A DNA stretch of 32,000 bases from Verrucomicrobiaceae bacterium E54 (GCA_022548915.1 JAKZES010000030.1:22207-54206), one strand, 5' to 3'; shown: positions 4,357 through 30,868, counted from the stretch's first letter. Notes: a model not told the origin generated them from the letters alone. Numbers and translations are program-made.

Positions 4357-4376
4357 GTTAGGGTGTGTCTTCTGGT

Positions 4377-5941: not shown

Positions 5942-7581
5942 CAGAAACTACTGGTGGCGTACTTCTTGCGGAGGCGGTTGCGGATGATGATGGCCGCCAG
6001 GTTCATTACCACCACGATGGTGATCAGGAGCAGGGTGGTCGCGAAGACCATCGGCTTCGCCGCCTCCGAATCGGGCGACTGAAAGCCGAGGTCGTAGATG
6101 TGGAAGCCGAGGTGCATGAACTGCCGCTCCGGATGGATGAAGGGCGCGGTCACGTCGATCGGAAGGTCGGGCGCGCTCTTGACCACGCCGACCAGCATCA
6201 GGGGCGCCACCTCCCCCGCCCCCCGGGCCATGGCGAGAATCACACCTGTGAGAATCCCGGGCAGCGAGGCCGGGAGCACCACCCGCTGGATGGCCTGCCA
6301 TTTCGAGGCCCCGCAGGCCAGGGCCGCCTCGCGGACTCCGCGCGGCACGGCGGCCAGGGCTTCCTCGGTCGCGACGATGACCACCGGCACGGTGAGCAGG
6401 GCCAGAGTCAGCGATGCCCACAGGATCCCGCCACTCTTGTAAACCGGCTCCTCCGCGTTGGGGAAGAAGACGCCGTCGACGACGCCGCCGACGAAGTAGA
6501 TGAAGAACGCCAGGCCGAAGACGCCGAAGACGATGGACGGCACCCCGGCCAGGTTGTTGACCGAGATCCGGACCGCGCGGACGAACGGACCCTGCTTGGC
6601 GTATTCGCGCAGGTAGATCGCCGCGATCACCCCGAAGGGCGTAACGAAGAGGCTCATGACGATGGTCATGATCACCGTTCCGAAAATGGCCGGATAGACG
6701 CCTCCCTCGGTGTTCGCCTCGCGGGGGTCCATGGTGAGGAAATTCCAGATCCGCCGAAGCATCTCGCCAAGGCGCCCGAAGAAACCCACCTCGTTCGGCC
6801 TCAGAACGTGCAGCAGGCTTTCTCCGGAGATGACGATCTCCCTTCCATCGACCGCCTCGATGTAGAGGTGCCGGGCCTTCATGAGTTCCTCGATCTTCAC
6901 CTTCTCGGCGAACAGTTCCTCGTACTCCGCCTGGAGCTTCTCCAGCTCCGCATCGATCTCCGGAATGGATCCCCCAACCTTGCCATCCGCGATCAGCCGC
7001 TTCTTAAGCTCGAGTTCCTTGATCCGCTTCGAGTTCTTGCCGATCTGGAACTTCTCCACGTCCCGCAATTCGTCGCGGCGGTCCTCGTTGACTTCGATCA
7101 GGGCTTCAAGCTCGTCCTCGAAGGACGGATCCTCCGGGCCCATCCTGCTGCCGTCGGCCAGCTCGATCGCCTTGGCCCGGCCGATCACGTTGCCGCCTGC
7201 GAGACGCTCGACGAGCAGCAGGTCATCGGCCTGCTCGCGACTCACGATGCTGGACGAGTCGAGAAACACGAACTTCTCGCCGTACAACTCCACGTTCCCG
7301 CGAAACAGCTGCACTTCGTGATGGAGGTTTCCGTCGCCATCCCGGCGATCGCGGTCCAGCACCTCGTAGCCGGCCACCTTCTCGGTTCCCGAGTCGGTCT
7401 TCACCTCGAAGACCTGCAGCCGGTCGGGCCAGAAAGTCTGGCAACCCTTGTAAACCACGAGACCGAGCAGCCACAGGGTCATCAGCACACCCAGCGTGAG
7501 GCCGAGCGCGGTAAGCCACACCAGCGGCTCCCCCTTGCGGGAGCGCCCGGTCGTCGCGAATGCTTTGGGTGGTTTCGCCAT
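5941..7581 (-). CDS. pstA: phosphate ABC transporter permease PstA, long form
   Basis: The C-terminal permease core includes [20 protein letters not shown] (EAA-type loop). After the N-terminal TM there is a ~250-aa extra domain with a charged coiled-coil-like stretch ([22 protein letters not shown]...[21 protein letters not shown]). Confidence 0.85.
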
Positions 7582-7588
7582 GGTTGGT

Positions 7589-9865
7589 TCAGACGAGCTT
7601 GTTCTTCTCCCTCAGCCGCTGGCGCAGGATCTCGGCGACGGAGTTGAGCGTGAAGGTGAGGACGAAGAGGACAAGGGCACCGAGGAACAGGGTCCGGTAG
7701 TGGGTCGAGCCGGGTGCCGCTTCGGGGAGCTCGACGGCGATGTTCGCCGCCAGCGTGCGCATGCCATTCATGATGTTCCACTCGGTCACCGGCGTGTTTC
7801 CGGTCGCCATGACCATGATCATGGTCTCCCCGACCGCGCGGCCGAACCCGATCATGAGCGCGGAGAAGATGCCCGGCGAAGCCACCGGAATGATGATCGA
7901 GCGGACCACCTGCCAACGGCTGGCCCCGAGCGCCGACGACGCCGCGGTCAGGGTCTTGGGAACATTCGAGAGGGCATCCTCCGAAATGGTGAAAATGACG
8001 GGAATCACGGCGAAGCCCATCATGAAGCCGACCACGACGCAGTTCCTCTGGTCGTAGGAAAGACCGGTCGCCTGCGGCCACCAGAGCCGGAAATCGGCGA
8101 TGGCACGCCCCGTCGCGGGGTCCTCGTAAACGAAGGCGAGCCTTTCGAGGAGGGGACCCAGCGACCAGGCCGCCCACGAAACCCCGAGAACGACCGGCAC
8201 CATGACCATCCACTCCCGTCCCCCCTCCAGCCAGCGCCGGACCTGCATCGGCTGGCGGCACCAGATCACACCCATCAGGAGCGCCGCGACCGGCAAGGAC
8301 AGGCAGACCAGAAGGATGGAGGGGATCTTGTCCTCGATGATGGGTGCCAGCCAGATGCCGGCGAGGAATCCCAGCACCACCGAAGGAAGAGAAGCCATGA
8401 TCTCCATCGCCGGCTTGACCACCTTCTTCATGTCGTGGGGAAGGAACGACGCCGAGAACACCGCGGCGAGCAGGGCCACGGGAACCGAGAACAGCAGGGC
8501 GTAGAAGGTGCCCTTCAGCGAGCCGATGATCAGCGGGACCAGGGAAAGCTTGGGCTCGAAGTCGTCGGAGCCTCCGGTCGACTGCCACTGATAGACCGGT
8601 TCCGAGCCACCCTCGTACCAGACCTTTCCGAAGAACGCGGTCCAGCCGGACTCCGGGTGGGGGTCGTCGAAGGTGTAGCGCTGGATCTGTCCTTCGGCAC
8701 CGGCGATGAAGAAGTGCTCGGTTTTTCCGTCGATGGCGGCCGCCACCGGCTCGAAGGATGCCTCGCCCTCCCAGCGGGTCTCGCCGGAGGTCAGGTGGCG
8801 CAGCGAGAGCCGTCCGCCGGCACCGGTGAGGAAGCTCTTGTTGCGCAGGCTCGGCGCGAAGATCGGCAGTCCGGCCCCCACTGGAGCAAACTCCTTGATC
8901 TGGCCGAACAGGCGGTCGACCGAGCCCTCGGGGCGGAACAGGCTGAAGATCTTCTGGTCACCACTGGCATCGGTCATGGCGACCGACACGCCGCCGAAGA
9001 GGTAATCCATCTGCACCGGCGGATCGCCATCGAAGGGCTTGAAGGTCTGCTTCAGGACGGCCTCGCCGCCGTCGATCAAAAAGTAATAAACCGCCCCCGA
9101 CTGCGTCGCGATCAGCGCCTCCTTGCCGTTGTTGGAAGCCACCACCGAACTCACGTCCGAGCCGAGTTGATCCCCAACCGCGGTCTCTCCGGCGCGGGTC
9201 AGCTTTTCACCACCGATGAGCCCCCGCTTCTGCCGGAGTTCGATGAGACTCGTGCCCAGATCCCGGGCGACCACCACGATGCGCCGGCTTCCGCCTTCAC
9301 CGTAGGCAAGCTCCCTGACCGGTCCGGCACCCTCCTCCACCTCGAACCACGGCTCCTCCTCCACCGACGGGACCACCGTGCGCCGCCCTTCCTCATCGAA
9401 CTCCGCGCCGTAGGTGACGACGAACGATCCCACCCGGCCATCCGCCGTGCCGACGGCAATGCGCCGCTTCACCGGATCGGACGAGACCGCCGTGACTTCG
9501 ACGCCCTCGAGCATTGGGACCGGCAGTATCTCGCGAGCGCCGGTCTCGACATCGACAATCGTGATTGCCGACCCGCCCTGATAGAGAAAGGGCTTCTCTC
9601 CCCACTCATCCACACCCAGGGCCAGCGAGTTGCTGTTGGAGTTCTCCGGCCCCGGGGCCTCCATCAAGGCCTCAACCTCGACTTCGGCCTTCGAGAACAG
9701 CGGGATGATCTCCTTGAGAATGAAGAAGAAGATTCCGAAGACTGCCAGAATCACCGCCAGACCGCCCACCCGGATCAGGTGGGTCATCGCCCGATCGAGC
9801 AGCAGGGTGCCCTTGGACACCTCGAATCGCTGGGGATCGGGCTCTGGAGACTTGGTCGGACTCAT
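7589..9865 (-). CDS. pstC: phosphate ABC transporter permease PstC, long form
   Basis: The C-terminal permease core includes SSALGASRWQVVRSIIIPVASPGI. One N-terminal TM (GGLAVILAVFGIFFFIL) is followed by a ~400-aa non-membrane, beta-rich domain. The track start at 9880 is TTG; the ATG at 9865 (MSPTKS) is preferred. Confidence 0.85.
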   Translation of the reverse strand: MSPTKSPEPDPQRFEVSKGTLLLDRAMTHLIRVGGLAVILAVFGIFFFILKEIIPLFSKAEVEVEALMEAPGPENSNSNSLALGVDEWGEKPFLYQGGSAITIVDVETGAREILPVPMLEGVEVTAVSSDPVKRRIAVGTADGRVGSFVVTYGAEFDEEGRRTVVPSVEEEPWFEVEEGAGPVRELAYGEGGSRRIVVVARDLGTSLIELRQKRGLIGGEKLTRAGETAVGDQLGSDVSSVVASNNGKEALIATQSGAVYYFLIDGGEAVLKQTFKPFDGDPPVQMDYLFGGVSVAMTDASGDQKIFSLFRPEGSVDRLFGQIKEFAPVGAGLPIFAPSLRNKSFLTGAGGRLSLRHLTSGETRWEGEASFEPVAAAIDGKTEHFFIAGAEGQIQRYTFDDPHPESGWTAFFGKVWYEGGSEPVYQWQSTGGSDDFEPKLSLVPLIIGSLKGTFYALLFSVPVALLAAVFSASFLPHDMKKVVKPAMEIMASLPSVVLGFLAGIWLAPIIEDKIPSILLVCLSLPVAALLMGVIWCRQPMQVRRWLEGGREWMVMVPVVLGVSWAAWSLGPLLERLAFVYEDPATGRAIADFRLWWPQATGLSYDQRNCVVVGFMMGFAVIPVIFTISEDALSNVPKTLTAASSALGASRWQVVRSIIIPVASPGIFSALMIGFGRAVGETMIMVMATGNTPVTEWNIMNGMRTLAANIAVELPEAAPGSTHYRTLFLGALVLFVLTFTLNSVAEILRQRLREKNKLV

Positions 9866-9913
9866 CGCGGGTCGCGGCAATCAAGGGAAGAGCCCGCCGC
9901 GGGGCAATCCCAC

Positions 9914-9929
9914 CCAGGTGACAACCTGG
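9914..9929 (-). other. short hairpin in the pstS-pstC intergenic spacer
   Basis: CCAGGT-GACA-ACCTGG gives a perfect 6-bp stem with a 4-nt loop. It lies between the pstS stop (9974) and the pstC start. It could modulate the pstS:pstCAB transcript ratio. There is no U-run. Confidence 0.3.
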
Positions 9930-9973
9930 TCGCGGTCTTGCTGCCCACGGACGGGCTCGGGGTCAATCCGTGA

Positions 9974-10933
9974 TTATTTCGAGAGGGAGGTGACGACCTC
10001 CTCGGCCAGCTCCGCCGGCATCGGGAAGTAGCCGTCCTTCTCCACGATCGCCTGGCCTTCCTTGGAAAGGACGAACTTGAGGAACTCGAGCGGGGCCTTT
10101 GGCAGCGGCTCGCCCGGCTTCTTGTTCACATACACGAGGAGGAAGCGCGCCAGCGGGTAGTCACCGGAAAGCGCGTGTTCGTAGGTCGCGTCGTAGAACT
10201 CACCGCCCTCGGTGGAAAGCGGCACGGTGCGCACCCCCGAGGTCTTGTAGCCGATGCCCGAGTAGCCGAGCGCGTAGAGGTCGCCACCCACGCCCTGGAC
10301 CACCGCCGAGGATCCCGGCTGCTCCTTCACGGTCGCCTTGTAGTCGCCCTTGCCGAGCACGTGCTCCTGAAAGAATCCGTAGGTGCCGGAGGCGGAATTG
10401 CGGCCATAGAGGGAGATCGAGCGTCCCTTCCAGGCATCGAGGCCGAGCTGGCCCCACTCCTTGATGTCCTCGCCGCCCAGCTTGCGGGTGCTCGAGAAGA
10501 TGCCGTCGACCTGCTTGAGGCTGAGACCCTTGATCGGGTTGTCCTTGTGGGCGAACACCGCGAGCGCGTCGATGGCGACCCTCACCTCGGTCGGCTTGTA
10601 GCCGAACTTCTTTTCGAAGGCATCGATCTCCTCCGCCTTCATCGGGCGGCTCATCGGACCGAACTGCGAGGTGCCTTCCATCAAGGCCGGGGGCGCCGTG
10701 GATGAACCCTTGCCCTCGATCGAGATCGTGACGTTCGGGTAGGCCTTTTTGAAGCCCTCGGCCCAGAAGGTCATCAGGTTGTTGAGCGTGTCAGACCCGA
10801 CCGATGTCAGACTGCCGGCCACGCCCGACACGGGCTCGTAGACGGCGAGATCGGGGTCGAGATGCGACTCCGCGGCGGTGGCGGTGGCGGTGGCGAGACT
10901 TGCGGCGAGGATGCCGGTAGCAATGGATTTCAT
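9974..10933 (-). CDS. pstS: phosphate ABC transporter substrate-binding protein PstS
   Basis: Has a signal peptide (MKSIATGILAASLATATATAAE) and a PstS-family PBP body (GSDTLNNLM, GSSTAPPAL, SGTYGFF). The true ATG is at 10933. The track ORF reaching 11161 is an upstream in-frame extension that overlaps the porin gene. Confidence 0.9.
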   Translation of the reverse strand: MKSIATGILAASLATATATAAESHLDPDLAVYEPVSGVAGSLTSVGSDTLNNLMTFWAEGFKKAYPNVTISIEGKGSSTAPPALMEGTSQFGPMSRPMKAEEIDAFEKKFGYKPTEVRVAIDALAVFAHKDNPIKGLSLKQVDGIFSSTRKLGGEDIKEWGQLGLDAWKGRSISLYGRNSASGTYGFFQEHVLGKGDYKATVKEQPGSSAVVQGVGGDLYALGYSGIGYKTSGVRTVPLSTEGGEFYDATYEHALSGDYPLARFLLVYVNKKPGEPLPKAPLEFLKFVLSKEGQAIVEKDGYFPMPAELAEEVVTSLSK

Positions 10934-10968
10934 GTGCTTGTGGTAACTAGTGATGTCGTGTTTGAGGT

Positions 10969-11024
10969 GCGCGGGTAGGCGCGGAAGAGAGATGGGAAAT
11001 GATGCTGCTCTTGCCCACCCGCGC
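10969..11024. repeat. 12-bp inverted repeat in the pstS leader/promoter region
   Basis: GCGCGGGTAGGC (10969-10980) and GCCCACCCGCGC (11013-11024) are complementary at 11 of 12 positions and are separated by 32 nt. The repeat lies 36-91 bp upstream of the pstS ATG. Confidence 0.4.
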
Positions 11025-11027
11025 TTG

Positions 11028-11043
11028 GTGACGGAGCCGTCAC
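11028..11043. promoter_or_regulatory. palindromic candidate operator GTGAC-N6-GTCAC upstream of pstS
   Basis: The sequence GGTGACggagccGTCACT is a perfect 5+5 palindrome. The same architecture occurs at 12481-12498 and 12582-12599. A GTCACCCGG element follows at 11073-11081. Confidence 0.4.
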
Positions 11044-11133
11044 TCAGAGGGCGGGCGGACCCTGTCGAACCCGTCACCCGGCGGTTCCGCGCGATGCGCG
11101 GCGCGGCCGCCGGGATGGGGCTCGCAGGCGGGA

Positions 11134-12405
11134 TCAGAAATAGCTGCGGAAGGCGAACCATGCCGTGAGAGCATCGGCCTCGCCGGTCGTACCCACTTGC
11201 GGGGCATTCAGCCAGTCATACTCAAGTCCGGCCTGGACCTTGAGATTGTGACCGCAGAGCAACCAGTTGACTCCGGCGTAGAGCGTCTGGTGCGTGTCGC
11301 CACGACCGCCGGCAACGTTGACGGTCGGTCCGTGGTTGCGGCGGAAGTAGCGGCTGTAGGTGCGGATGCCCTGCCGCTCCGAAGAACCCTGGTATTGGTA
11401 GCGGACCACGAACTGGACCTTGTCCTCGACCACCCAGTAGTAGGGCATGATGACCGCCCCCCAGAAGTTCCCCTGGCGATTCCGGTTCCCCTGGCCGTTC
11501 CGCAAGTCCCCGTTGTCGCCCAGGTAGTAGTCGGTATTGACCCCCCACCGGCCCTGTGAGTAGGCGGCGGTGAAGACGGTGGCCCAGTTGTAGGCAAACA
11601 AGCTGTCCTCCCCGCTGGTCACGTCCGCATCATTGTAGATGAAGTCCCAGTAAAAGGACCACTCATCGGTGGGCGAGTATCCAAGGCCGAGATAAAAGGC
11701 CAGGCCATCGTTCCATCCACCCAGCATCTCGACATTGCCACCGGTCACGCTGGCATCGGTGCTGTAGATCCGGGCCACCATCTCCCACGGACCGCGTGTC
11801 GCCTCGAGGCCAAGGCCGGTCACCCGGTAGCTGTTGAAGACCTTGTTGGCGATGCTGGACCGCTCGACCGTCAGCAATTTCTTGGAAGACTCCCGGGCCT
11901 CGGATCCGAGCACGAACTTGAAGCGGCCGTAGGCGATGTCGAGCGAGTCCAATCCGTCGATACCGAAGGCCTTCTTGGCATTGAAGATCAGAAGGGCCTC
12001 GTCGAAGTCCTCGTAACCCCACCCGAGCGAACCGCCCGAGGGGCGTTGGTCGCTCACCACGTTCACGTTCGCCTTCAACTGGAAATACTGCAGAAACTTC
12101 AGCGACGCTCCGAGTCGGGCACGCCGGAACTCCGTGTAGTCGTCTCCGAACTCGTAGCCATTGACATCATCACCCCAGATGTAGGCCGCCTGCCATTGAA
12201 GCCGACCGAAGACGCCGAACTCCTGGATGAACGGATTCTCCGGATTTTTGTAGAGTGTGCCGGGCTTGTTCGAAAGCCACTCGCACCAGTCCCCCTGATT
12301 GATGGATTCCAAAATCGAGGACTCGGACTGCGCGGTCTCAGCGTGAGCGGTTCCGATCATCACGACCGGAAGGGCGATCCGCAGGGCATGGGTCAGTTGT
12401 TTCAT
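11134..12405 (-). CDS. phosphate-selective porin O/P family outer-membrane protein
   Basis: Has a signal peptide (MKQLTHALRIALPVVMIGTAHA), a beta-rich aromatic-alternating sequence and a C-terminal ...AFRSYF. It sits directly upstream of pstS on the same strand. ATG at 12405; the track start at 12465 is an extension. Confidence 0.7.
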   Translation of the reverse strand: MKQLTHALRIALPVVMIGTAHAETAQSESSILESINQGDWCEWLSNKPGTLYKNPENPFIQEFGVFGRLQWQAAYIWGDDVNGYEFGDDYTEFRRARLGASLKFLQYFQLKANVNVVSDQRPSGGSLGWGYEDFDEALLIFNAKKAFGIDGLDSLDIAYGRFKFVLGSEARESSKKLLTVERSSIANKVFNSYRVTGLGLEATRGPWEMVARIYSTDASVTGGNVEMLGGWNDGLAFYLGLGYSPTDEWSFYWDFIYNDADVTSGEDSLFAYNWATVFTAAYSQGRWGVNTDYYLGDNGDLRNGQGNRNRQGNFWGAVIMPYYWVVEDKVQFVVRYQYQGSSERQGIRTYSRYFRRNHGPTVNVAGGRGDTHQTLYAGVNWLLCGHNLKVQAGLEYDWLNAPQVGTTGEADALTAWFAFRSYF

Positions 12406-12460
12406 GTTGGTTTCAGGTTTGGTCCCCAAAAAGGACGAGGCGGATCTATCTGACGGTTCC

Positions 12461-12469
12461 GTCACCCGG
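12461..12469. promoter_or_regulatory. GTCACCCGG element (second copy)
   Basis: This 9-mer is identical to the one at 11073-11081 upstream of pstS. Here it is followed by AATTCCCG. Confidence 0.3.
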
Positions 12470-12480
12470 AATTCCCGATA

Positions 12481-12498
12481 TGTGACATTCCCGTCACA
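12481..12498. promoter_or_regulatory. palindromic candidate operator TGTGAC-N6-GTCACA
   Basis: aTGTGACattcccGTCACAt is a perfect 7+7 palindrome when the flanking bases are included (12480-12499). It lies 76 bp upstream of the porin ATG, inside the divergent region. Confidence 0.45.
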
Positions 12499-12581
12499 TT
12501 CTCAGGATTCCGCCGCCTCCCCTCGAACCCATTGGTTTTGAGGGCCTCAGGCGCGGCGCGTCCCGGAGGTCCTGGGGCCAT

Positions 12582-12599
12582 TGTGACAGAGTCTTCACA
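12582..12599. promoter_or_regulatory. palindromic candidate operator TGTGAC-N6-TTCACA
   Basis: TGTGACagagtcTTCACA has the same spacing as the 12481 site with one half-site mismatch. It lies in the porin/RND divergent region. Confidence 0.35.
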
Positions 12600-16117: not shown

Positions 16118-19100
16118 ATGTTCAGCCTCTTCTTCATCAAGCGACCGGTCTTTGCCGCGGTCATCTCGATCGTCATCACGGTGATCGGCGCGGTGTCCCT
16201 GCTCAACCTGCCGGTTTCCCGCTACCCGAATCTCGCGCCGCCGACGATCTCGATCTCCGCCTTCTACCCCGGTGCCGACGCCCGGACGGTTTCCGACACG
16301 GTCGCCGCGACCATCGAGAAGGAGGTCAACGGCGTCGAGGGCATGATCTACATGTCCTCGGTTTGCGGCAACGACGGCAGCATGAGCCTGACCGTCACCT
16401 TCGAACCCGGCACCGATCTCGACACCGCCAACGTGCTCGTCCAGAACCGCGTCGCCAAGGCCGAGCCACGCCTGCCGGAGGAGGTCAAGCGCACCGGCGT
16501 GACCGTGCGCAAGCGCTCGACCGACACGGTGATGTTCATCGGGCTGACCTCGCCCAGCGGCGTTTACGACGCCGCCTATCTCTCCAACTACGCCAACCTG
16601 CGAATGCGAGACGAACTGTCGCGCGTTCCCGGCGTCGGCGACGTCACCGTGTTCGGCGTCGGTGAGTTCAGCATGCGGGTGTGGCTCGACCCCGACCTCC
16701 TGCGCGCGCGGAACCTCGCCGCCACCGACGTGCTCGCGGCGATCCGCGAGCAGAACATTCAGGTCGCCGCCGGCCGCATCGGCGGTGCGCCGACCACCCC
16801 CGGCACCGCCTTCGAGTACATCCTCTCGACCCAGGGCCGGCTCTCCGAGGTCGAGGAGTTTGAGAACATCATCGTCCGCACCGGCGACGAGGGCGGCACG
16901 ATCCGCCTGCGCGACGTCGCCCGCGTCGAACTCGGCTCCGACACCTACTCCTTCAGCTCCAAGCTCAACGGCGTGCCCGGCACCACCTTCGCCATCTATC
17001 AGATTCCCGGTACCAACCTGATCGACGTCGCCGCCGGCGTGCGGGAGAAGCTCGCCGAGTTGGCGAAAAGCTTCCCCGGCGACCCCGAAGCAGAGGTTCG
17101 CGATGTCGAGGCCAAGGTCGTTTACGACGCCACCGATGTGATCACGGCCTCGATCAAGGAGGTGGTGATCACCCTCTTCGCCACCCTCATCCTTGTCGTC
17201 CTCACCGTCTTCCTCTTCCTCCAGAACGCCCGCGCGACCCTGATTCCCACCATCACCATCCCGGTGGCTCTCATCGGCACCTTCGCGGTGCTGCTGGCGA
17301 TGGGATTCTCGCTCAACATCCTCACCCTCTTCGGCTTGGTGCTGGTGATCGGCATCGTCGTCGACGACGCGATCATCGTCGTCGAGAACACCTTCGTGCA
17401 CCTCGAAAAGGGGCTTTCCGGCAAGGAAGCCGCCGCCGCCGCGATGAAGGAGGTTTCGGGTCCGGTCGTCGCCACCACCCTGGTGCTGCTCGCCGTCTTC
17501 GTGCCGACCGCCACCATGACCGGGATCACCGGCACGATGTTCAAGCAGTTCGCCGCCACCATCGCCATCGCCACCGTCTTCAGCTCGATCAACGCGCTCA
17601 CGCTCAGCCCCGCCCTGTGCGGCATTCTGCTCAAGCCGGGCAACAAGGAGCCCCGCGGCCTCTTCAAGGCCTTCAACCGCTCGATCGAGGCGTCCAACTC
17701 GGGCTACCGCAAGGTCGTCCGCCTCGCGCTGCGCTTCGCACCGATCGGTGTGGCCGCCTTCATCGCCATGACCGGTGGCTCGATCCTCGGGCTCGGCAGC
17801 CTGCCCACCGGCTTCGTCCCGCAGGAGGACGAGGGCTACTGCATGGTGGCGGTGCAGCTTCCCGACGGTGCCACGCTCGACCGGACCCTGGACGTGATGG
17901 CGAAGGTCGAGAAGATCGTCGCCGACACCGAGGGGACCGTCGACTGCCTCTCGATCGCCGGCTACTCGGTCATCGACGGCGCCGCCGGGGCCAACAACGG
18001 CTTCTGCGTGGTGACCTTCAAAAACTGGAGCGAACGCGGCGATCCCGAACTCCACCAATCCGCCATCCTCCAGAAGCTCCAGCAGAAGCTGTTCTCGATC
18101 CAGGAGGCCGGGGCCTTCGCCTTCGCCATGCCCTCGCTCCCCGGCGTCGGCGTCTCGGGTGGCTTCACCTTCATGCTCCAGGACAAGGAGGGCGCGGGTC
18201 TCGACCAGCTGCAGGCGGTCGCCGGCGAACTCATTGCCACCGGCAACGCCGACCCGGGCCTGGCCGGCGTGCGCACCACCTTCCGGGCCAGCGTGCCGCA
18301 GATCTACGTCGATATCGACCGCGAGCAGGTCAAGCGCTCCGGCGCTTCCATGACCGAGGTTTTCAACACGATGCAGGTCCACCTCGGCTCGGCCTATGTC
18401 AACGACTTCACCCTCTTCGGCCGGGTGTTCAAGGTCACCGCCCAGGCCGACGCGCCCTTCCGCGACCAGCCCGACGACATCGATGCGCTGCAGGTGCGGG
18501 GGAAAGACGGTCGCATGATCCCGCTCGGTGCCGTCGCCGAACTGAGGGACACGCTCGGTCCGCAGAGCGTGACCCGCTTCAACATGCTGCCCGCTGTGAA
18601 GATCCTCGGGGATCCCGCGCCCGGCTTCAGCTCCGGTGAGGCGATGAACCGGATGGAGACCATCGCCAACACCACCCTGCCACCCTCGATGACCTTCTCG
18701 TGGTCGGAACTCTCGTTTCAGCAAAAGCAGGCGGCGGCCGGTCTCGCAGCCATCTTCGGCTTCGCCATCCTCATGGTCTATCTGGTCCTCGCCGCGCAGT
18801 ATGAGAGCTGGACGCTGCCGATCTCGGTGTGCCTTTCCGTCCCGACCGCTCTGCTGGGGGCCGTGGTCGCGATCAAGATGCGCGGCATGGAGAACAACGT
18901 CTATACCCAGATCGGGATCATTCTCTTGATCGCGATGGCGACAAAGACCGCCATCCTGCTGACCGAGTTCGCCAAGGTGAAGCGCGACGAGGGCCTCAGC
19001 ATCTTCGACTCCGCCGTCGAATCGGTCCGGTTGCGCTTCCGCGCGGTCATGATGACCGCCCTCTCCTTCGTCCTCGGCGTCATTCCCCTGCTCATCGCCT

Positions 19101-19252
19101 CGGGTGCCGGTGCGGAGTCGCGCAAGGTGCTCGGCACCGCCGTCTTCGGCGGCATGCTCGCCGCCACCGCCGTCTCCCTCGCCGCGGTGCCGATGCTCTA
19201 CTACGTCGTCCAGAGCATCAGCGAGCGCCTCGGCAGGAAGAAGGAATCGTGA
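16118..19252 (+). CDS. RND multidrug efflux transporter permease (HAE1/AcrB family)
   Basis: The 1044-aa product has an AcrB-like N-terminus (MFSLFFIKRPVFAAVISIVITVIGAVSLLNLPVSRYPNLAPPTISI), 12-TM architecture and two large periplasmic loops. Confidence 0.9.
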   Translation: MFSLFFIKRPVFAAVISIVITVIGAVSLLNLPVSRYPNLAPPTISISAFYPGADARTVSDTVAATIEKEVNGVEGMIYMSSVCGNDGSMSLTVTFEPGTDLDTANVLVQNRVAKAEPRLPEEVKRTGVTVRKRSTDTVMFIGLTSPSGVYDAAYLSNYANLRMRDELSRVPGVGDVTVFGVGEFSMRVWLDPDLLRARNLAATDVLAAIREQNIQVAAGRIGGAPTTPGTAFEYILSTQGRLSEVEEFENIIVRTGDEGGTIRLRDVARVELGSDTYSFSSKLNGVPGTTFAIYQIPGTNLIDVAAGVREKLAELAKSFPGDPEAEVRDVEAKVVYDATDVITASIKEVVITLFATLILVVLTVFLFLQNARATLIPTITIPVALIGTFAVLLAMGFSLNILTLFGLVLVIGIVVDDAIIVVENTFVHLEKGLSGKEAAAAAMKEVSGPVVATTLVLLAVFVPTATMTGITGTMFKQFAATIAIATVFSSINALTLSPALCGILLKPGNKEPRGLFKAFNRSIEASNSGYRKVVRLALRFAPIGVAAFIAMTGGSILGLGSLPTGFVPQEDEGYCMVAVQLPDGATLDRTLDVMAKVEKIVADTEGTVDCLSIAGYSVIDGAAGANNGFCVVTFKNWSERGDPELHQSAILQKLQQKLFSIQEAGAFAFAMPSLPGVGVSGGFTFMLQDKEGAGLDQLQAVAGELIATGNADPGLAGVRTTFRASVPQIYVDIDREQVKRSGASMTEVFNTMQVHLGSAYVNDFTLFGRVFKVTAQADAPFRDQPDDIDALQVRGKDGRMIPLGAVAELRDTLGPQSVTRFNMLPAVKILGDPAPGFSSGEAMNRMETIANTTLPPSMTFSWSELSFQQKQAAAGLAAIFGFAILMVYLVLAAQYESWTLPISVCLSVPTALLGAVVAIKMRGMENNVYTQIGIILLIAMATKTAILLTEFAKVKRDEGLSIFDSAVESVRLRFRAVMMTALSFVLGVIPLLIASGAGAESRKVLGTAVFGGMLAATAVSLAAVPMLYYVVQSISERLGRKKES

Positions 19253-19330: not shown

Positions 19331-19376
19331 GGTCCCGAAGGGACCACCCATCCCAGCCGGGGCGCTTCAGCCCCCG
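19331..19376. repeat. REP-like element, left copy, flanking the RAYT gene
   Basis: GGTCCCGAAGGGACC forms one hairpin and GGGGCgcttcaGCCCC forms a second. 42 of 46 positions match the reverse complement of 19950-19995. Confidence 0.75.
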
Positions 19377-19438
19377 TGAACACGGCCTCGCACCGGATTT
19401 TCGTCGCGATGCGACGACCCAACTCTGTATGCTTCTCC

Positions 19439-19891
19439 ATGGCTTCAACCCTCACGCAGCTTCTCTATCATGGCATCTGGTCAACCAAGGACCGTGCACC
19501 TCTCATCACCCGGGCAATCGAAGAGAATGTGTGGAAGATCCTCGCATCCGTCGCCACCCACAACGAGATACATGTCATCCGCGCCGGAGGCATCGACGAC
19601 CACGTCCATGTCTTGATGCGAATCCCGAAGACGATGTCCGTGGCGGACGCGATGCGCCGGATCAAGGGAGGCTCTGCAAAGTACATCAACGAAGAACGCC
19701 TGTGCCAGGGCCGGTTCGGGTGGCAGGATGGATACGGCGCGTTCAGCGTCAGCGCATCGTCGGTTCCAGCGGTGACTGCCTACATCGCCAGCCAACGCGA
19801 TCACCACAGAATGCGGGGATTTCAGGACGAGTTCCTCGACTTCCTCGAGAAGCACGGCGTCGAATACGATGAACGCTACGTTTGGGGCTGA
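19439..19891 (+). CDS. REP-associated tyrosine transposase (IS200/IS605 TnpA-like Y1 HUH enzyme)
   Basis: Shows the IS200-like fold signature LLYHGIWSTKDR, the HUH motif HVHVL and a catalytic Tyr context YIASQ (Y-x3-Q). ATG at 19439; the track start at 19376 lies inside the left REP. No tnpB is adjacent. Confidence 0.8.
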   Translation: MASTLTQLLYHGIWSTKDRAPLITRAIEENVWKILASVATHNEIHVIRAGGIDDHVHVLMRIPKTMSVADAMRRIKGGSAKYINEERLCQGRFGWQDGYGAFSVSASSVPAVTAYIASQRDHHRMRGFQDEFLDFLEKHGVEYDERYVWG

Positions 19892-20083: not shown

Positions 20084-22048
20084 TCACGCGGGAAGGCCGA
20101 TCTTGAGGTCCGGACCCACCCTGCGTTCCTCCCGACTCCCCTCCCGTGCCTCCCTCGCCAACTCCTCAATGAAGTCCTCGTAGCGAAGGAGCTCGAGGCG
20201 CCCGTCGTGGTGCTCGACGATGGCGGTGAGACTTTCGACCCAGTCGCCCGAGTTCAGGTAGCGCACCCCCTCGATCTCCTTGTCCTCGGGCGTGTGGATG
20301 TGTCCGCAGATGATCCCATCGCACTGTCGCCGCCGCGCATACTGCTGGAGCTGCTGCTCGTAGTTGTCGACGAAGCTCACCGCCGACTTCACCCGCGCCT
20401 TCACCTTCTTGCTGAGCGAGAAGTAGTCCTTCCCCATCCAGGCCCGGTAGCGATTGTAGCCCCGGTTGATCTTGAGCAGCGTGTCGTAGCCGATCGCTCC
20501 GAGCCACGCCAGCCAGCGGTGGTTGGTCGAGACGCTGTCGAAGCCATCCCCGTGGACCACCAGATAGCGTTTCCCGTCCGGTCCCTGGTGGATGTGCTCC
20601 TTGACGAACTGGATCCGCCCGAAACCCAGCGGCAAAAAGCGGTCGAGGATGTCGTCGTGATTGCCGCGGCAGTAGATCACCTGGGTCTCGTCCTTTTCCA
20701 TCTTCTTCAGCACCTTACGGATGAAGCGGCTGTGGCGCTTGCGCCATTTCGACCCGCGGCGCAGGGCCCAGCCGTCGATGATGTCGCCGTTCAGGACCAG
20801 CTTGTCGCAGCGGGTGTGCTTGAGGAAATCGGTGACCTCGTGGACCTTGGAGTCGGGCGTGCCGAGGTGGATGTCCGATAGGAAGATCGTGCGGTAGTCG
20901 CGACGCTTGAAGCGACGCTTCAGCTTCCGTGTGACCGGGGATGGACCCGCCGCTTCGGAAATCTCCCGGAGCTTGCCTTCGAAGACATCGATCACCTGGT
21001 CCCAACCGAGCGACAGGACCGAGTCCCGCGCACCCGCCCGCATCTCACCCCGCCAGTGCCTCAGGGCATCCACCGCGAGCTCGGCATACTGGGTCGAATC
21101 ACCCTTCACGGCCTTGAGCCCGTTGCTGCCGTGCGCGACATACTTTGCCGCTGCGGCATAGTCGTAGCTGACGGTCACGAGACCCGACGCCATGCCCTCG
21201 AGCAGGACATTTCCGAAGGTCTCGGTCTCACTCGGAAAGAGCAGGATGTCGGCCGAAGCGTAGTGCCGCGCCAGGTCCTCACCCGTGCGCACACCCGCGA
21301 AATGGACGTGCCGGTTCCGCGCCTCGAGTGCCTCGCGACTCGGGCCGTCGCCGACGCAGACGCAGCGGAGATCGGGGACCTTCGCCCGCATGCGACGGAA
21401 GCACTCCATCGCCAGCGAAAGATTCTTCTCCGGAGCCAGCCGTCCGACGACGATGGCCACCGGCGATCCCTCCCGCACACCCCATTGCGCGCGCAGGGCC
21501 GCGCAGCGTTTGGAGGGAGCATAAAGTTTGGTGTCCACTCCCCGACCGAGAAGCGTCACGTTGTTGAAACCCTCGTGGTCGAGCATTTCGACCACATCAG
21601 CGGTCGGAGCCATGGTGACCGCCGCCCGACGATGGACCCGCTTGAGGTAGCTCATGGTCGCCGGTTGGAGACCGCCGAGGCGATACTGCTCCATGTACTG
21701 GTGGAAGTTGGTGTGAAAGCCGGCGGCAACGGGAATGCCGAGCAGGTTGGCCGCCTTGATCGCCGACATTCCCAGCGGACTCTCGGTCGCCACGTAGATG
21801 GCATCCGGACGCCGCTTCAGCCACCGGCGGCGCAGCTTGAAGGGCCCCGGCAGTCCGATTCGCACCTCCTTGTATCCCGGCAGGCGAATCGACCGCGCCC
21901 GGGTCTCGCCCTGTCTGCCCTCCCCGCCGGTGCGGATGATGTGGACCAAGTGGCCCCGGCTCCGCAGCCCCTCGCAAAGCCTGCCAAGGGTCATCGCGAC
22001 TCCATTGACGTCGGGAGCGAAGGTGTCCGTGACGATGTCGATTCTCAT
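20084..22048 (-). CDS. fusion protein: N-terminal GT4 glycosyltransferase (diacylglycerol glycosyltransferase-like) + C-terminal LpxH/PlcP-like metallophosphoesterase
   Basis: Residues ~1-365 start MRIDIVTDTFAPDVNGVAMTL (GT4 N-terminal domain) and include the E-x7-E motif ETFGNVLLE. Residues ~385-625 carry all calcineurin-like motifs: SDIHLG, NGDIIDG, RGNHDD, VVHGD, CGHIHTP. It is a single uninterrupted 654-aa ORF. Confidence 0.75.
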   Translation of the reverse strand: MRIDIVTDTFAPDVNGVAMTLGRLCEGLRSRGHLVHIIRTGGEGRQGETRARSIRLPGYKEVRIGLPGPFKLRRRWLKRRPDAIYVATESPLGMSAIKAANLLGIPVAAGFHTNFHQYMEQYRLGGLQPATMSYLKRVHRRAAVTMAPTADVVEMLDHEGFNNVTLLGRGVDTKLYAPSKRCAALRAQWGVREGSPVAIVVGRLAPEKNLSLAMECFRRMRAKVPDLRCVCVGDGPSREALEARNRHVHFAGVRTGEDLARHYASADILLFPSETETFGNVLLEGMASGLVTVSYDYAAAAKYVAHGSNGLKAVKGDSTQYAELAVDALRHWRGEMRAGARDSVLSLGWDQVIDVFEGKLREISEAAGPSPVTRKLKRRFKRRDYRTIFLSDIHLGTPDSKVHEVTDFLKHTRCDKLVLNGDIIDGWALRRGSKWRKRHSRFIRKVLKKMEKDETQVIYCRGNHDDILDRFLPLGFGRIQFVKEHIHQGPDGKRYLVVHGDGFDSVSTNHRWLAWLGAIGYDTLLKINRGYNRYRAWMGKDYFSLSKKVKARVKSAVSFVDNYEQQLQQYARRRQCDGIICGHIHTPEDKEIEGVRYLNSGDWVESLTAIVEHHDGRLELLRYEDFIEELAREAREGSREERRVGPDLKIGLPA

Positions 22049-22234
22049 CTGATTACTTAAGATTGCTTAACCAACGGATTCGTTTATCTCCCCAAGCACC
22101 CGTGCGTCGCATCCCAAAGCGGGGGCGATTTCGTCACATCCGGAATTTCGTGCCGGCCCGGACTCCCGTCGTTTCGGGCGGCGCGGATGGAATTCGCACT
22201 TCGCAGATTCAGCACCCCGCCTACACTACGCGCC

Positions 22235-23320
22235 ATGTCCTCCAGCTTCGGTCAGCTCTTCCGCATCCATACCTTCGGAGAATCCCACGGAGGCGGTGTG
22301 GGCGTGATCATCGACGGCTGCCCGCCCCGGGTGCCGCTCAGCGTCGAGGACATTCAGCGGGAGCTCGATCGGCGCCGGCCCGGCCAATCGGAGATCGTCA
22401 CCCCGCGCGACGAGGCCGACTCGGCAACCATCCTCTCCGGCGTGCAGGACGGCATCACCCTGGGCACCCCGATCGCGGTGGTCGTGGCCAACAAGGACCA
22501 GCGCCCGGGCTCCTACGATGAGATGGCCGTCAAATACCGCCCGTCGCACGCCGACTACACCTACGACGCCAAATACGGAGTCCGCTCCATCTCCGGTGGC
22601 GGGCGCGCCTCGGCACGGGAAACGATTGGCCGCGTCGCGGCGGCGGCGGTTGCCCGCAAGGTGATCGCGAGTCTCGTGCCCGAGTTGGAAATTCTCGCCT
22701 GGGTCAGCCGGATCCACGACATCGAGGCCCGGGTCGATGCCTCGTCCGTGACCCTCGACCAGATCGAGTCGAACATCGTCCGCACCGGCGACCCCGAGGC
22801 CGCCGAACGGATGATCGAGCGGATCAAGCAAGTCCGGTCGGAGGGAAATTCGATCGGCGGTGTGGTCGAGTGCGTCGTGCGCCACTGTCCGCCGGGCCTC
22901 GGTGAACCGGTCTTCGACAAGCTCGAGGCTGAATTGGCCCGGGCGATGATGTCCCTCCCGGCGACCAAGGGTTTCGAGATCGGTTCGGGTTTCGCCGGAA
23001 CCTACATGACCGGCAGCGAGCACAACGATCCGTTCCGAATCGTCGACGGCAGGGTCCGCACCACCAGCAACCGCTCCGGGGGCATCCAGGGCGGCATCTC
23101 CAACGGCGAGGACATCGTGTTCCGCGTCGGCTTCAAGCCCACCGCCACCATCATGACGCATCAGGACACCGTCACCAGCGGGGGTGAAAACACCGAACTC
23201 AAGGGCAAGGGCCGCCACGATGCCTGCGTGCTGCCCCGCGCCGTCCCGATGGTCGACAACATGGCCGCCCTCGTGATCTGCGACCACCTGCTCCGCCAGC
23301 GCGGCCAATGCGGGCTCTGA
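22235..23320 (+). CDS. aroC: chorismate synthase
   Basis: [32 protein letters not shown] and GGISNGE are canonical AroC motifs. ATG at 22235. Confidence 0.95.
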
Positions 23321-28753: not shown

Positions 28754-28800
28754 CCGCCGTCGCGGGGATCGTTCACTCCTCGCCACGGCGGTCATTTTTT
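28754..28800 (+). terminator. intrinsic terminator after the secreted two-gene module
   Basis: CCGCCGT (28754-60) pairs with ACGGCGG (28785-91). An inner 7-bp helix (GCGGGGA/TCCTCGC, one G-U) closes an 8-nt loop. TCA and a T6 run (28795-28800) follow. Confidence 0.6.
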
Positions 28801-28814
28801 GATATGGGTCGGCC

Positions 28815-29411
28815 ATGACCCTCGCCAGCAAGATCACGCTGGGCCGGATCTTCCTGGTGCCGGTGTTCGCGGTACTGGCGATCTACTACGGAATCAGCAT
28901 CGAGGCGGGACACCCCGAGGAGTGGCTTCGCTGGTCGGCCCTCGCCGTGTTCATCGTCGCCTCGGCCAGCGACGGCGTCGACGGCTGGATCGCGCGGCGC
29001 TTCAATCAACGCTCCCGCTTCGGGGCGATCATCGATCCCATCGCCGACAAGTCGCTGCTGCTGACCGCGCTGATCACCCTGAGCCTGGTCGACTGGGGCC
29101 CGGATGGCTGGCGCATCCCACTGTGGTTCACCGCCGTGGTGATCGTCCGCGACATCATCATCGTCGGAGGCATTGCCTTCATTCATTTCATGAACGGCCA
29201 CGCCGAGGTCCGGGCCCAGTGGAGTGGCAAGGTCTGCACCTTCGCCCAGATGTTCGCCCTCGGCTGGGTCATGCTGCGGGTCGTCCCCTTCTCGCCGATC
29301 TACCCCTGCCTGTTCGCCACCTTCTTCTGCGTCTGGTCGGGAATCGCCTACTTCCGGGCAGGCCTCCGCCAACTCGGCGATGCCCACCACGAACCGGGAT
29401 CCGACTCCTGA
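28815..29411 (+). CDS. pgsA: CDP-diacylglycerol--glycerol-3-phosphate 3-phosphatidyltransferase
   Basis: ITLGRIFLVPVF... followed by DGVDGWIARRFNQRSRFGAIIDPIADK gives the CDP-alcohol phosphatidyltransferase motif. The size (~198 aa) and TM pattern are PgsA-like. Confidence 0.8.
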   Translation: MTLASKITLGRIFLVPVFAVLAIYYGISIEAGHPEEWLRWSALAVFIVASASDGVDGWIARRFNQRSRFGAIIDPIADKSLLLTALITLSLVDWGPDGWRIPLWFTAVVIVRDIIIVGGIAFIHFMNGHAEVRAQWSGKVCTFAQMFALGWVMLRVVPFSPIYPCLFATFFCVWSGIAYFRAGLRQLGDAHHEPGSDS

Positions 29412-29421
29412 GCACCGCTGG

Positions 29422-29477
29422 AATTTCGGGTTTTCGGTTTTTCAGCATTTCAGCATTTTGGTTTTTCAGCGTTTACT
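29422..29477. repeat. 8-bp periodic TTTC array (7 units) abutting the der start codon
   Basis: T-tracts begin at 29424, 29432, 29440, 29448, 29456, 29464 and 29472, which is exactly 8-bp spacing. The sequence is aaTTTCgg gtTTTCgg ttTTTCag caTTTCag caTTTTgg ttTTTCag cgTTTAct, then cccccATG. Confidence 0.7.
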
Positions 29478-29482
29478 CCCCC

Positions 29483-30868
29483 ATGCCAACCGTCGCCATC
29501 GTCGGACGTCCGAACGTCGGGAAGTCCGCCATCTTCAACCGCCTCGCGGGACGGAGGATTGCGATTGTCCACGATCAGCCCGGGGTCACCCGCGACCGCC
29601 TCTCCGCCCCGTGCCACGCCACCCAGCACCCCTGCACCATCATCGACACCGGCGGGATCGGCGCGACGCTGGACGACGGCTTCGCCGCGCAGGTGACGCT
29701 GGAGGCCGACATTGCCATCCAGACGGCGGACCTCATTCTTTTCGTGGTGGATGCCCATGAAGGGCTCACTCCCATCGATCAGTCCCTCGCCGAGAAACTG
29801 CGCAAGGCCGGCGTTCCGGTGGTGCTCGTGATCAACAAGGTCGACGACAAGAAGCACGAGAACGCCTTCGCCGAGATGAGCCGGCTCGGACTGGGTGACG
29901 GGATCGGCGTTTCCGCCGAGCACGGCAAGGGCTTCGGCAAGCTCACCGCCGAAATGGACCGGCGGATCGAACCGCTTGCCAGCGAAATCGAGGAAGCGGT
30001 GGAGGAAGCCGTTGAGAGCGGCATCCGCCTTGCGATCGTCGGCAAACCGAATGCCGGCAAGTCCTCGCTCGTGAACGCCATTCTCAAGGACGAGCGCACC
30101 ATCGTTTCCGAAATCGCCGGCACCACCCGGGATGCCGTCGACCTTCCGTACGAAGTGGACGGGCAGCTCTTCACGCTCATCGACACCGCCGGGCTCCGGC
30201 CCCGCTCGCGCCGCGACTCATCGGTCGAGGTTTTTTCCGCCATGCGCTCCGAAAAGGCGATCCGCCGGGCCGACCTCTGCCTCCTGGTCATCGACCTCGC
30301 CTCGGGGATCAGCGCCCAGGACCGGAAAATCGCCCGGCTCATCCTCGACGCGAAGAAGCCTTGCCTGATCGTGCTCAACAAGTTCGATCTGTTTCATCCG
30401 GACGGACGGATGAACGACCGCCGGAAGGAAGCCGAGGAGCAGGTCAAGCGGGAGCTGTTCTTCCTGCACTACGCGCCCTTCGTCAGCGTCTCCGCCAAGG
30501 AGGGCACCGCCGTGGAGCAGATTTTCAAGAAGACGCTGTGGATCCAGAAGGGAGCCCGGAACGTCCCCACCACCGGAACCCTCAACCGCTTCCTCCAGCA
30601 CGCCTTCGAGGCCAACCCGCCACCGACCGTCGGTCGCGGCACGCGCCGGCTCAAGCTCTACTACGCGACCTGCGCGGTGAACGAGCGCTACTCGACCATC
30701 CCGGTCCCGACCATCGTGCTTTTCGTGAATGACAAGACCCTGATGAACTCCAGCTACGAACAGTATCTGGCCAACCGTTTCCGGGAGTCCCACCCTTCTC
30801 CCGGGATCCCGGTTATCTTCTCCGTCCGCTCCCGCCGCCGCACCGAGCGCGAGCCCAACCACGGATGA
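29483..30868 (+). CDS. der: ribosome-biogenesis GTPase Der (EngA), two tandem GTPase domains + KH-like domain
   Basis: G1 motifs GRPNVGKS and GKPNAGKS; DTGG and DTAG; NKVD and NKFD. ATG at 29483; the track ORF 28799.. is an extension that overlaps pgsA. Confidence 0.95.
   Translation: MPTVAIVGRPNVGKSAIFNRLAGRRIAIVHDQPGVTRDRLSAPCHATQHPCTIIDTGGIGATLDDGFAAQVTLEADIAIQTADLILFVVDAHEGLTPIDQSLAEKLRKAGVPVVLVINKVDDKKHENAFAEMSRLGLGDGIGVSAEHGKGFGKLTAEMDRRIEPLASEIEEAVEEAVESGIRLAIVGKPNAGKSSLVNAILKDERTIVSEIAGTTRDAVDLPYEVDGQLFTLIDTAGLRPRSRRDSSVEVFSAMRSEKAIRRADLCLLVIDLASGISAQDRKIARLILDAKKPCLIVLNKFDLFHPDGRMNDRRKEAEEQVKRELFFLHYAPFVSVSAKEGTAVEQIFKKTLWIQKGARNVPTTGTLNRFLQHAFEANPPPTVGRGTRRLKLYYATCAVNERYSTIPVPTIVLFVNDKTLMNSSYEQYLANRFRESHPSPGIPVIFSVRSRRRTEREPNHG

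Follow-up and report, generated by a model that had tools for sequence, protein, structure and literature searches.

The replacement of phospholipids by glycolipids through PlcP and Agt is the main phosphorus-sparing route of heterotrophic bacteria. This two-enzyme pathway is well established in Proteobacteria, where plcP and agt are adjacent and their products act in sequence (PMC8528852, PMC8231724). Mn2+-dependent hydrolysis of phosphatidylglycerol, phosphatidylethanolamine and phosphatidylcholine to diacylglycerol is known for the PlcP enzymes of Phaeobacter and Sinorhizobium (cited in PMC8231724), and the glycosyltransferases Agt1 and Agt2 of Pseudomonas aeruginosa, which produce glucosyl-diacylglycerol (MGDG) and glucuronosyl-diacylglycerol (GADG), respectively, in phosphate stress, have been demonstrated both genetically and with purified protein (PMC8528852). 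Here we describe a gene that encodes homologs of both enzymes in a single polypeptide of 654 residues. It lies in a 32,000-nucleotide stretch of Verrucomicrobiaceae bacterium E54 (GCA_022548915.1 JAKZES010000030.1:22207-54206), the whole of which we call the window and number from its first letter. An initial annotation of the window had stated that PlcP and an adjacent Agt act in sequence under phosphate limitation in other bacteria, which matches the literature (PMC8528852). The pathway is known; its one-protein version we have not found described, and the operator that we define for it is new here.

We consider it quite likely that this gene encodes a bifunctional lipid-remodelling enzyme of phosphate starvation, in which a PlcP activity followed by an Agt activity operates under Pho-type control. 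When phosphate is scarce, a Pho-type regulator would act on an operator that lies ~90 bp before the ATG and recurs at pst, porin and phoU. The PlcP domain, with a two-metal centre that is Mn2+-dependent in the characterised PlcPs, would cleave the glycerol–phosphate bond of membrane phospholipids such as phosphatidylglycerol and phosphatidylethanolamine, releasing the phospho-head group for phosphorus recycling and leaving diacylglycerol in the membrane. The Agt2-like GT4 domain would then move a sugar, most likely glucuronic acid and possibly glucose, from a UDP-sugar to diacylglycerol, yielding a phosphorus-free glycolipid. The kinetic benefit that we infer for the fusion is that it would fix a 1:1 stoichiometry and place both active sites at one membrane patch, with less free diacylglycerol as the result.

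The gene occupies positions 20084–22048 on the minus strand, which is also the strand of its parts, the promoter elements and the porin–phoU locus below, and the open reading frame (ORF) listing, retranslation and full-length homologs agree on a coding sequence of 654 residues plus stop. As the initial annotation had reported, the frame is uninterrupted from its ATG to a single stop codon at the end, and every glycosyltransferase and phosphoesterase motif that had been quoted is found in its place. The stretch IVTDTFAPDVNGV covers residues 5–17 and the E-x7-E motif ETFGNVLLE residues 276–284, followed by the phosphoesterase motifs DIH (392–394), GDIID (421–425), GNHD (462–465), HGD (499–501) and GHIH (582–585). 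Pfam recognizes Glyco_transf_4 at residues 14–174, Glycos_transf_1 at 185–332 and Metallophos at 386–587, each far over its gathering score. A linker (residues 366–385; 20894–20953), marked by low pLDDT in the structural model, separates the two halves, and it is here that the stop codon of unfused relatives falls. The linker is variable in sequence yet always basic, with 4–8 Lys/Arg against 0–2 Asp/Glu in all 14 of the 14 aligned homologs. The fusion protein has no transmembrane segment (maximum Kyte–Doolittle 19-residue mean of 1.29), which together with the basic linker suggests a cytoplasmic, membrane-peripheral protein.

The N-terminal half (residues 1–365; 20954–22048) is a GT4 domain of GT-B fold and is Agt2-like by its Pfam content, its identity to Agt2 and its modelled fold. 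It matches P. aeruginosa PA0842/Agt2 at full length (residues 1–378) with 42% identity (E = 1e-96), and Agt1/PA3218 with 32% identity (E = 4e-38); the P. aeruginosa glycosyltransferase that adjoins plcR–plcH–cerN we take to be PA0842/Agt2, going by the PAO1 gene order (PA0843–PA0845). Both glutamates of the E-x7-E motif (21197–21223), E276 and E284, are invariant across a 14-sequence alignment, and the solved structures nearest to the modelled GT-B fold are the retaining GT4 enzymes BshA, PimA and MshA. In NCBIfam, which holds no Agt model, the best models are GpgS (N-acetylglucosamine-phosphatidylglycerol synthase; 130 bits) and Mgs (monoglucosyl-diacylglycerol synthase; 104 bits), whose curated cut-offs are 480 and 400. 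GpgS is a GT4 enzyme in the same CDD group (PMC12713373), and because Agt2 itself gives nearly the same sub-threshold scores (135 and 96), the top match to GpgS marks a family-level resemblance only. A second pointer to glycerolipid substrates for this glycosyltransferase clade may come from Chromatium okenii, in which two proteins of 659–664 residues (P0192 and P0287) join an N-terminal PlsC/OlsA-like acyltransferase to a glycosyltransferase of the same clade that is 42% identical to the N-terminal half. These comparisons support the N-terminal half as a full-length homolog of validated diacylglycerol glycosyltransferases, with the corresponding activity predicted. The GT4 assignment of diacylglycerol type made from the sequence at the outset stands; the generic label 'UGDG-like' does not, as the closest characterised enzyme is Agt2, a glucuronosyl-diacylglycerol synthase.

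The C-terminal half contains a calcineurin-like metallophosphoesterase domain (residues 386–625; 20174–20893) of the PlcP type, also termed 'LpxH2', as assigned from Pfam, identity, motifs and the model. Over the whole domain it is 45% identical to PA3219 of P. aeruginosa (E = 5e-74) and 42% identical to SMc00171 of Sinorhizobium meliloti (E = 2e-71), while its identity to Escherichia coli LpxH is only 20–23%. PA3219 and SMc00171, both validated PlcPs, are 47% identical to each other. A tblastn search against annotated records places stand-alone homologs of the domain in both species: in P. aeruginosa the 270-residue homolog is followed by a glycosyltransferase and an adenylate cyclase, which is the PA3219–PA3218–cyaB layout, and in S. 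meliloti the 281-residue homolog sits beside sinR/sinI, presumably the location of SMc00171. Both lengths agree with those of 'LpxH2' in PMC3087551, and a value of 46% has been reported for the identity between PA3219 and S. meliloti PlcP (PMC8528852).

All five metallophosphoesterase blocks are present in the C-terminal half, and block 3 reads GNHD (20654–20665) in the column where E. coli LpxH has GNRD. According to Opiyo et al. (PMC3087551), His at this place marks LpxH2 and Arg marks LpxH. The alignment also shows three motifs, GDIIDGW, SLS..K.KVK.AV.F and GDWVES, that the C-terminal half has in common with PlcPs and that are absent from LpxH. On the LpxH equivalog models (NF003743, TIGR01854) the domain scores 40.5 bits against a cut-off of 134, compared with 38–55 bits for validated PlcPs and 364–389 for E. 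coli LpxH, and in a rough neighbour-joining tree without support values it falls inside the PlcP cluster, far from LpxH. Because identity, the GNHD block and the LpxH-model scores all place it with the PlcPs, the C-terminal half does not group with genuine LpxH, and its first description as a PlcP/LpxH-like phosphoesterase can be narrowed accordingly: the evidence supports membership of the PlcP ('LpxH2') phospholipase C family, not LpxH, with catalysis predicted.

In fold the domain resembles LpxH. An AlphaFold2 model of the C-terminal half alone has a pLDDT of 84, and its eight best Foldseek matches are all LpxH. LpxH is also the nearest solved structure by sequence profile (E = 6e-11), and a profile was needed to see this, as a single-sequence search against PDB sequences returned no LpxH at E<0.01. 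A three-helix 'lid' (residues 502–573; 20330–20545) is inserted between HGD and GHIH, and its helices span residues 126–142, 145–161 and 169–197 of the C-half model. It occupies the same topological position as the lid of LpxH, and the LpxH profile alignment spans it. Aromatic and basic in composition, the modelled lid is likely a lipid and membrane-interface element.

The promoter of the gene links it to phosphate supply. A 17-mer ~90 bp upstream of the ATG was first seen as common to four orthologous promoters, and a position weight matrix (PWM) seeded on these sites converged on TGTGACGAAATYGTCAC, a form present in about 70 of the 75 fusion promoters, giving a predicted 17-bp operator, TGTGAC-N5-YGTCAC. 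The copy before the fusion gene, TGTGACGAAATCGCCCC (22122–22138), scores 22.8 bits with this fusion-trained PWM, and every match of at least 12 bits in the window lies 5' of the fusion gene, of pstS (one copy, at 11028–11044) or of the porin/pst operon. The last of these has three copies within 12450–12599 (12450–12466, 12482–12498 and 12583–12599), of which 12482–12498 is an exact match to TGTSAC-N5-TGTSAC. Across ~1 Mb of related loci there are 28 other strong PWM matches, and nine of the ten neighbours tested with Pfam proved to be PstS, Porin_O_P, PhoU or PstC. To avoid circularity, an independent PWM was built from a motif discovered de novo in the promoters of pstS, porin and phoU alone. 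This motif, TGTGACGAATCCGTCAC, matches 66 of 75 fusion promoters (88%) with scores of 12 bits and above, clustered ~80–100 bp upstream of the ATG, against a background of 0.7% in shuffles and 4.4% in the upstream regions of other ORFs. A loose search for TGTSAC-N5-TGTSAC with two mismatches was not significant alone (10 matches against 5.7 expected), and the PWMs were used instead. The TGTGAC and TGTCAC hexamers have the 11-bp spacing of the classical Pho box, for which the consensus CTGTCAT-N4-CTGTCAT is quoted in PMC8528852.

The genes around related loci point the same way. In the window, the porin–pstS–pstC–pstA–pstB–pstB–phoU locus (3643–12465; Pfam PhoU, ABC_tran twice, BPD_transp_1 twice and PBP_like_2), whose porin ORF is 45% identical to proteins matching Porin_O_P, comes to within 7.6 kb of the fusion gene at the 3' side of the latter, close to the ~8 kb first noted. 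True Pho genes are found within 6 kb in 18 of 83 loci, and in 10 of them phoU or pstSCAB follows directly; PstB-like tblastn matches at 22–35% identity are generic ABC ATPases and were left out of this count. Because the operator is shared with pst, porin and phoU promoters and Pho genes lie near related loci, the fusion gene very probably belongs to the Pho regulon, and the phosphate responsiveness that the initial annotation had guessed from distance gains sequence support from a conserved operator. We put forward TGTGAC-N5-YGTCAC as a newly defined, clade-specific operator of predicted Pho type.

Several further features of these promoter regions were seen. An AT-rich element directly before the ATG (22049–22075) is kept in several genomes, reading TTAAGCAATCTTAAGTAATCAG in the window and beginning TTAGTTAAYCAACCTTAA... 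in loci L005 and L006 (loci of the genome scan carry L numbers), and the same interval of the window (22049–22075) holds no obvious Shine–Dalgarno sequence. In two Haloferula genomes an extra gene on the same strand stands directly 5' of the fusion gene (L005:8191-9876 and L050:4292-5887), encoding a 561-residue protein with a weak Metallophos match and a 531-residue protein with no Pfam match, respectively. In L050 a strong operator site (L050:4097-4113) precedes the extra gene and not the fusion, an arrangement that suggests a two-gene operon. The Brevifollis/Prosthecobacter group has, ~40–120 nt past the plcP stop and apart from any pst operon, a phoU paralog behind a Pho-box-like site of its own (L066, L067, L068, L070, L073, L075, L079 and L086).

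The fusion itself is conserved. In a collection of 5.8 billion proteins the best 120 matches are all ~640–690 residues long and carry both domain sets, and the best named homolog, HAHE_35260 of Haloferula helveola, is 79% identical; the source organism is an undescribed relative of Haloferula (Verrucomicrobiales). A genome scan with one genome per species found 568 relatives, and the best 79 loci that start at residue 1 were examined. An intact single ORF of 630–670 residues with glycosyltransferase and phosphoesterase motifs is present in 62 of them, among them isolates of Haloferula, Luteolibacter (two complete genomes), Rubritalea and Persicirhabdus. When clustered at 50%, the full-length fusions fall into only about five groups, one of which comes from metagenome-assembled genomes (MAGs) of Akkermansia sp., and the rest are stand-alone glycosyltransferases or phosphoesterases. 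Since the 120 best homologs have two domains and the intact loci include isolate and complete genomes, the fusion is no assembly artefact, and the early concern that a stop or frameshift might split the ORF into two genes is not borne out.

The fusion is clade-restricted, and sister lineages carry the same proteins as two genes. Ten loci at 47–53% identity have unfused agt–plcP pairs (L066–L070, L073, L075, L079, L085 and L086), drawn from Brevifollis, Prosthecobacter, Verrucomicrobiaceae MAGs and one 'Opitutales' MAG, and these pairs bear the same operator ~75–85 bp upstream. Their glycosyltransferase ORF stops within the linker region, after 373–388 residues, and plcP starts from an ATG of its own. 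Eight of the ten pairs (L066–L070, L073, L075 and L079) have plcP in the frame of the glycosyltransferase, a soft statistic given that the lineages are related. The stop-to-ATG gaps of these eight are 6, 9, 15, 21, 21, 36, 36 and 42 nt, the junctions lie ~1120–1170 nt after the glycosyltransferase start, and the stop is TAA, TGA or TAG; of the remaining two pairs, L085 and L086, one has an ATGA overlap and one is in another frame. The in-frame pairs could reflect recent fission of the fusion or stop-codon readthrough. Most simply, the fusion would have arisen by loss of a stop codon in an agt–plcP operon; otherwise the split pairs would be recent fissions. The neighbour-joining trees have no support values and the glycosyltransferase tree is poorly resolved, so that fusion events cannot be counted from them. 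Gene order is plcP then glycosyltransferase in Proteobacteria and Bacteroidota, and glycosyltransferase then plcP in Verrucomicrobia; as genetic linkage, the adjacency of agt and plcP in sister lineages and Proteobacteria supports sequential action of the two halves. Two other lines were discarded: the stand-alone verrucomicrobial glycosyltransferase relatives P0128 and P0129, considered as a clue to the origin of the fusion, have no plcP neighbour, and plcP next to any glycosyltransferase does not serve as evidence for Agt, as a Parabacteroides plcP homolog is followed by a glycosyltransferase unrelated to the N-terminal half.

Some observations weigh against parts of our proposal. Two loci keep PlcP with the glycosyltransferase mostly deleted (L083:3413-4360 and L081:5950-7185), and in L083 glycosyltransferase residues 1–32 are joined straight to the PlcP domain, with a Pho-box-like site still upstream (L083:3321-3337). 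Because of these deletions, and because other lineages keep agt and plcP as two genes, the fusion is not required for function. Nothing supports a physical channel between the active sites, because the inter-domain geometry of the full-length AlphaFold2 model is unreliable: built from the 14-sequence alignment, it has a pLDDT of 67.8 and a pTM of 0.50, with a poor C-terminal half and poor domain packing. The sugar donor cannot be read from the sequence, and donors differ within the Agt family, with Agt1 using glucose only and Agt2 mainly glucuronate (PMC8528852), and a Pelagibacter enzyme of the family using three sugar donors (PMC8231724). The operator copy at the fusion gene has a degenerate second half-site, with CGCCCC for CGTCAC, and on the independent PWM this copy reaches only 14.3 bits. 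The motif can also be read as an inverted repeat, GTGAC-N7-GTCAC. In full-text searches of the literature library, no publication came up in which the fusion is described, named or tested, and for which the databases give labels other than 'glycosyltransferase' or 'LpxH/glycosyltransferase'.

The alternative that best survives this evidence accepts the function as proposed and holds that the fusion is neutral or merely fixes co-expression, the two domains being independent. We give it somewhat less than an even chance. Related lineages do with separate genes, in some cases translationally coupled through an ATGA overlap; in Proteobacteria and Bacteroidota the genes are likewise separate, with their order reversed; and some genomes dropped the glycosyltransferase part and kept PlcP. 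The linker is poorly conserved and modelled as disordered, and diacylglycerol stays in the membrane, so that plain co-localisation may suffice. Set against these points is the retention of the fusion in 62 of the 79 loci, in several genera and down to ~55% identity, and the shared frame of eight of the ten unfused pairs hints that a joined product matters, although neither amounts to proof. A more elaborate role for the joined product is, in our estimate, unlikely: the PlcP lid and the acceptor site of the glycosyltransferase might form a shared membrane-embedded groove that passes diacylglycerol between the sites, with split pairs partly read through. Selection would in that case act on a joined product in the unfused lineages too, and the eight in-frame pairs of the ten would make both separate and fused proteins.

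As for control by phosphate, the shared motif might not be a PhoB box at all, and instead bind a different regulator or have a structural role, with no induction by phosphate starvation implied. The near-perfect inverted repeat speaks for this, as classical PhoB boxes are direct repeats, and no phoB or phoR gene is present in the 32-kb window. Because of the inverted repeat, the binder need not be PhoB. On the other hand, the 11-bp spacing of the hexamers is like that of CTGTCAT-N4-CTGTCAT (PMC8528852), the motif stands before pstS, phosphate porin O/P, phoU and pstC, the core of the Pho regulon, and, whatever binds, the simplest view of genes that have a site in common with pst is that they are regulated together with phosphate uptake. 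We regard a role apart from phosphate starvation as improbable, and co-regulation with the Pho genes as the preferred reading.

Slightly less probable again is that the protein is a lipid enzyme of phosphate starvation with other chemistry, in which the glycosyltransferase acts on phosphatidylglycerol or another acceptor in the manner of GpgS, or the phosphoesterase acts on another phosphodiester (such as lysolipids, phosphatidate or a glycerophosphodiester). Substrates are not readable from sequence, and GpgS does outrank Mgs among the NCBIfam models for the N-terminal half. However, both scores are far below their cut-offs and nearly those of Agt2, to which the identity is 42%, the C-terminal half is as close to validated PlcPs as these are to each other, and no GpgD- or GpgF-like deacetylase or flippase adjoins the fusion gene. 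The weakest alternative makes the C-terminal domain the lipid A pyrophosphatase LpxH (UDP-2,3-diacylglucosamine to lipid X) and the glycosyltransferase an enzyme of envelope glycolipid or lipopolysaccharide synthesis, and we regard it as highly improbable: public labels favour it ('UDP-2,3-diacylglucosamine diphosphatase' for stand-alone homologs and, in IMG, 'LpxH/glycosyltransferase' for the fusion), as do the LpxH structures found by profile and by fold, but it is opposed by GNHD in place of GNRD, the sub-threshold 40.5 bits and the 20–23% identity, by the failure of the 270-residue P. aeruginosa LpxH2, i.e. PA3219, to complement E. coli lpxH (PMC3087551), by the presence of LpxI and not LpxH in the verrucomicrobia Opitutus terrae and Methylacidiphilum (PMC3087551 Table S1), by the complete absence of PlcP from verrucomicrobial methanotrophs (PMC9239053), and by the Pho operator, under which an essential housekeeping gene is not expected.

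The remaining neighbours of the fusion gene are functionally unrelated to it. A divergent chorismate synthase gene (22187–23320) lies on its 5' side, and on its 3' side are an RND efflux pump (16118–19252) and, between pump and fusion, a REP-type (IS200-like) Y1 transposase gene on the plus strand (19376–19891). The transposase is missing at the syntenic spot of the closest long contig (L006), where the pump directly follows the fusion. The pst operon (4377–9880) has two tandem genes for pstB-like ATPases (4377–5180 and 5180–5941), and its permease ORFs are unusually long (546 residues for the PstA-like and 763 for the PstC-like protein), with BPD_transp_1 in their C-terminal parts only. An ORF on the plus strand (28799–30868) encodes a Der/EngA-type double GTPase of 689 residues, with ~230 residues before the first GTPase domain that may be an N-terminal extension or the product of an over-called start codon.

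A natural fusion offers 'Rosetta-stone' support for the view that PlcP and Agt work as a unit, and it brings the pathway firmly to Verrucomicrobiales, a group that abounds in soil, in freshwater and at sea. In Pseudomonas the PlcP–Agt route also alters polymyxin resistance. The single gene could be moved to other hosts for phosphorus-free membranes, and the fused protein is a structural target for the hand-over of a membrane-resident intermediate between two peripheral enzymes. With TGTGAC-N5-YGTCAC, the remaining members of the phosphate-starvation regulon of the clade can be predicted, and the occurrence of fused, split-in-frame, split-overlapping and glycosyltransferase-deleted forms in close relatives provides a compact system in which to study gene fusion and fission.

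Among known systems, the stand-alone PlcPs (SMc00171 and PA3219, and the enzymes of Phaeobacter MED193 and Pelagibacter HTCC7211) resemble the C-terminal half in their 42–45% identity, five blocks, GNHD, lid and PlcP motifs, in their sub-threshold scores on LpxH models, and in their linkage to an Agt-type glycosyltransferase and a Pho box. They differ in being separate proteins of 250–290 residues, whereas here PlcP is the C-terminal domain of a 654-residue protein; and while plcP precedes agt in Proteobacteria, the glycosyltransferase is upstream in this verrucomicrobium. LpxH (5K8K, 5B49 and 6PH9) agrees with it in fold and in the position of the helical lid, yet it reads GNRD where the fusion has GNHD, is only distantly related in sequence (20–23% identity) and acts on a different substrate class. 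The Agt family (Agrobacterium tumefaciens Agt, Pelagibacter GTcp, Agt1 and Agt2) shares with the N-terminal half the GT-B fold of GT4, the E-x7-E motif and Pho-box control, but only the glycosyltransferase of the fusion is covalently joined to PlcP, and Agt2 of P. aeruginosa adjoins plcH/plcR and not plcP. The uncharacterised C. okenii fusion likewise contains a glycosyltransferase of this clade, although its partner is the N-terminal PlsC/OlsA-like acyltransferase and not a phospholipase. Rubritalea marina DSM 17716 has been counted among strains with 'PlcP plus neighbouring Agt', with no mention of a fusion (Sebastián et al. 2016); its locus in our scan (L055) matches query residues 1–642 as an intact single ORF. 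The agt–plcP pairs of Brevifollis, Prosthecobacter and other Verrucomicrobiota have the same two proteins in the same order behind the same operator, often followed by phoU, and differ from the fusion in that a stop codon interrupts the linker region and plcP has a start of its own.

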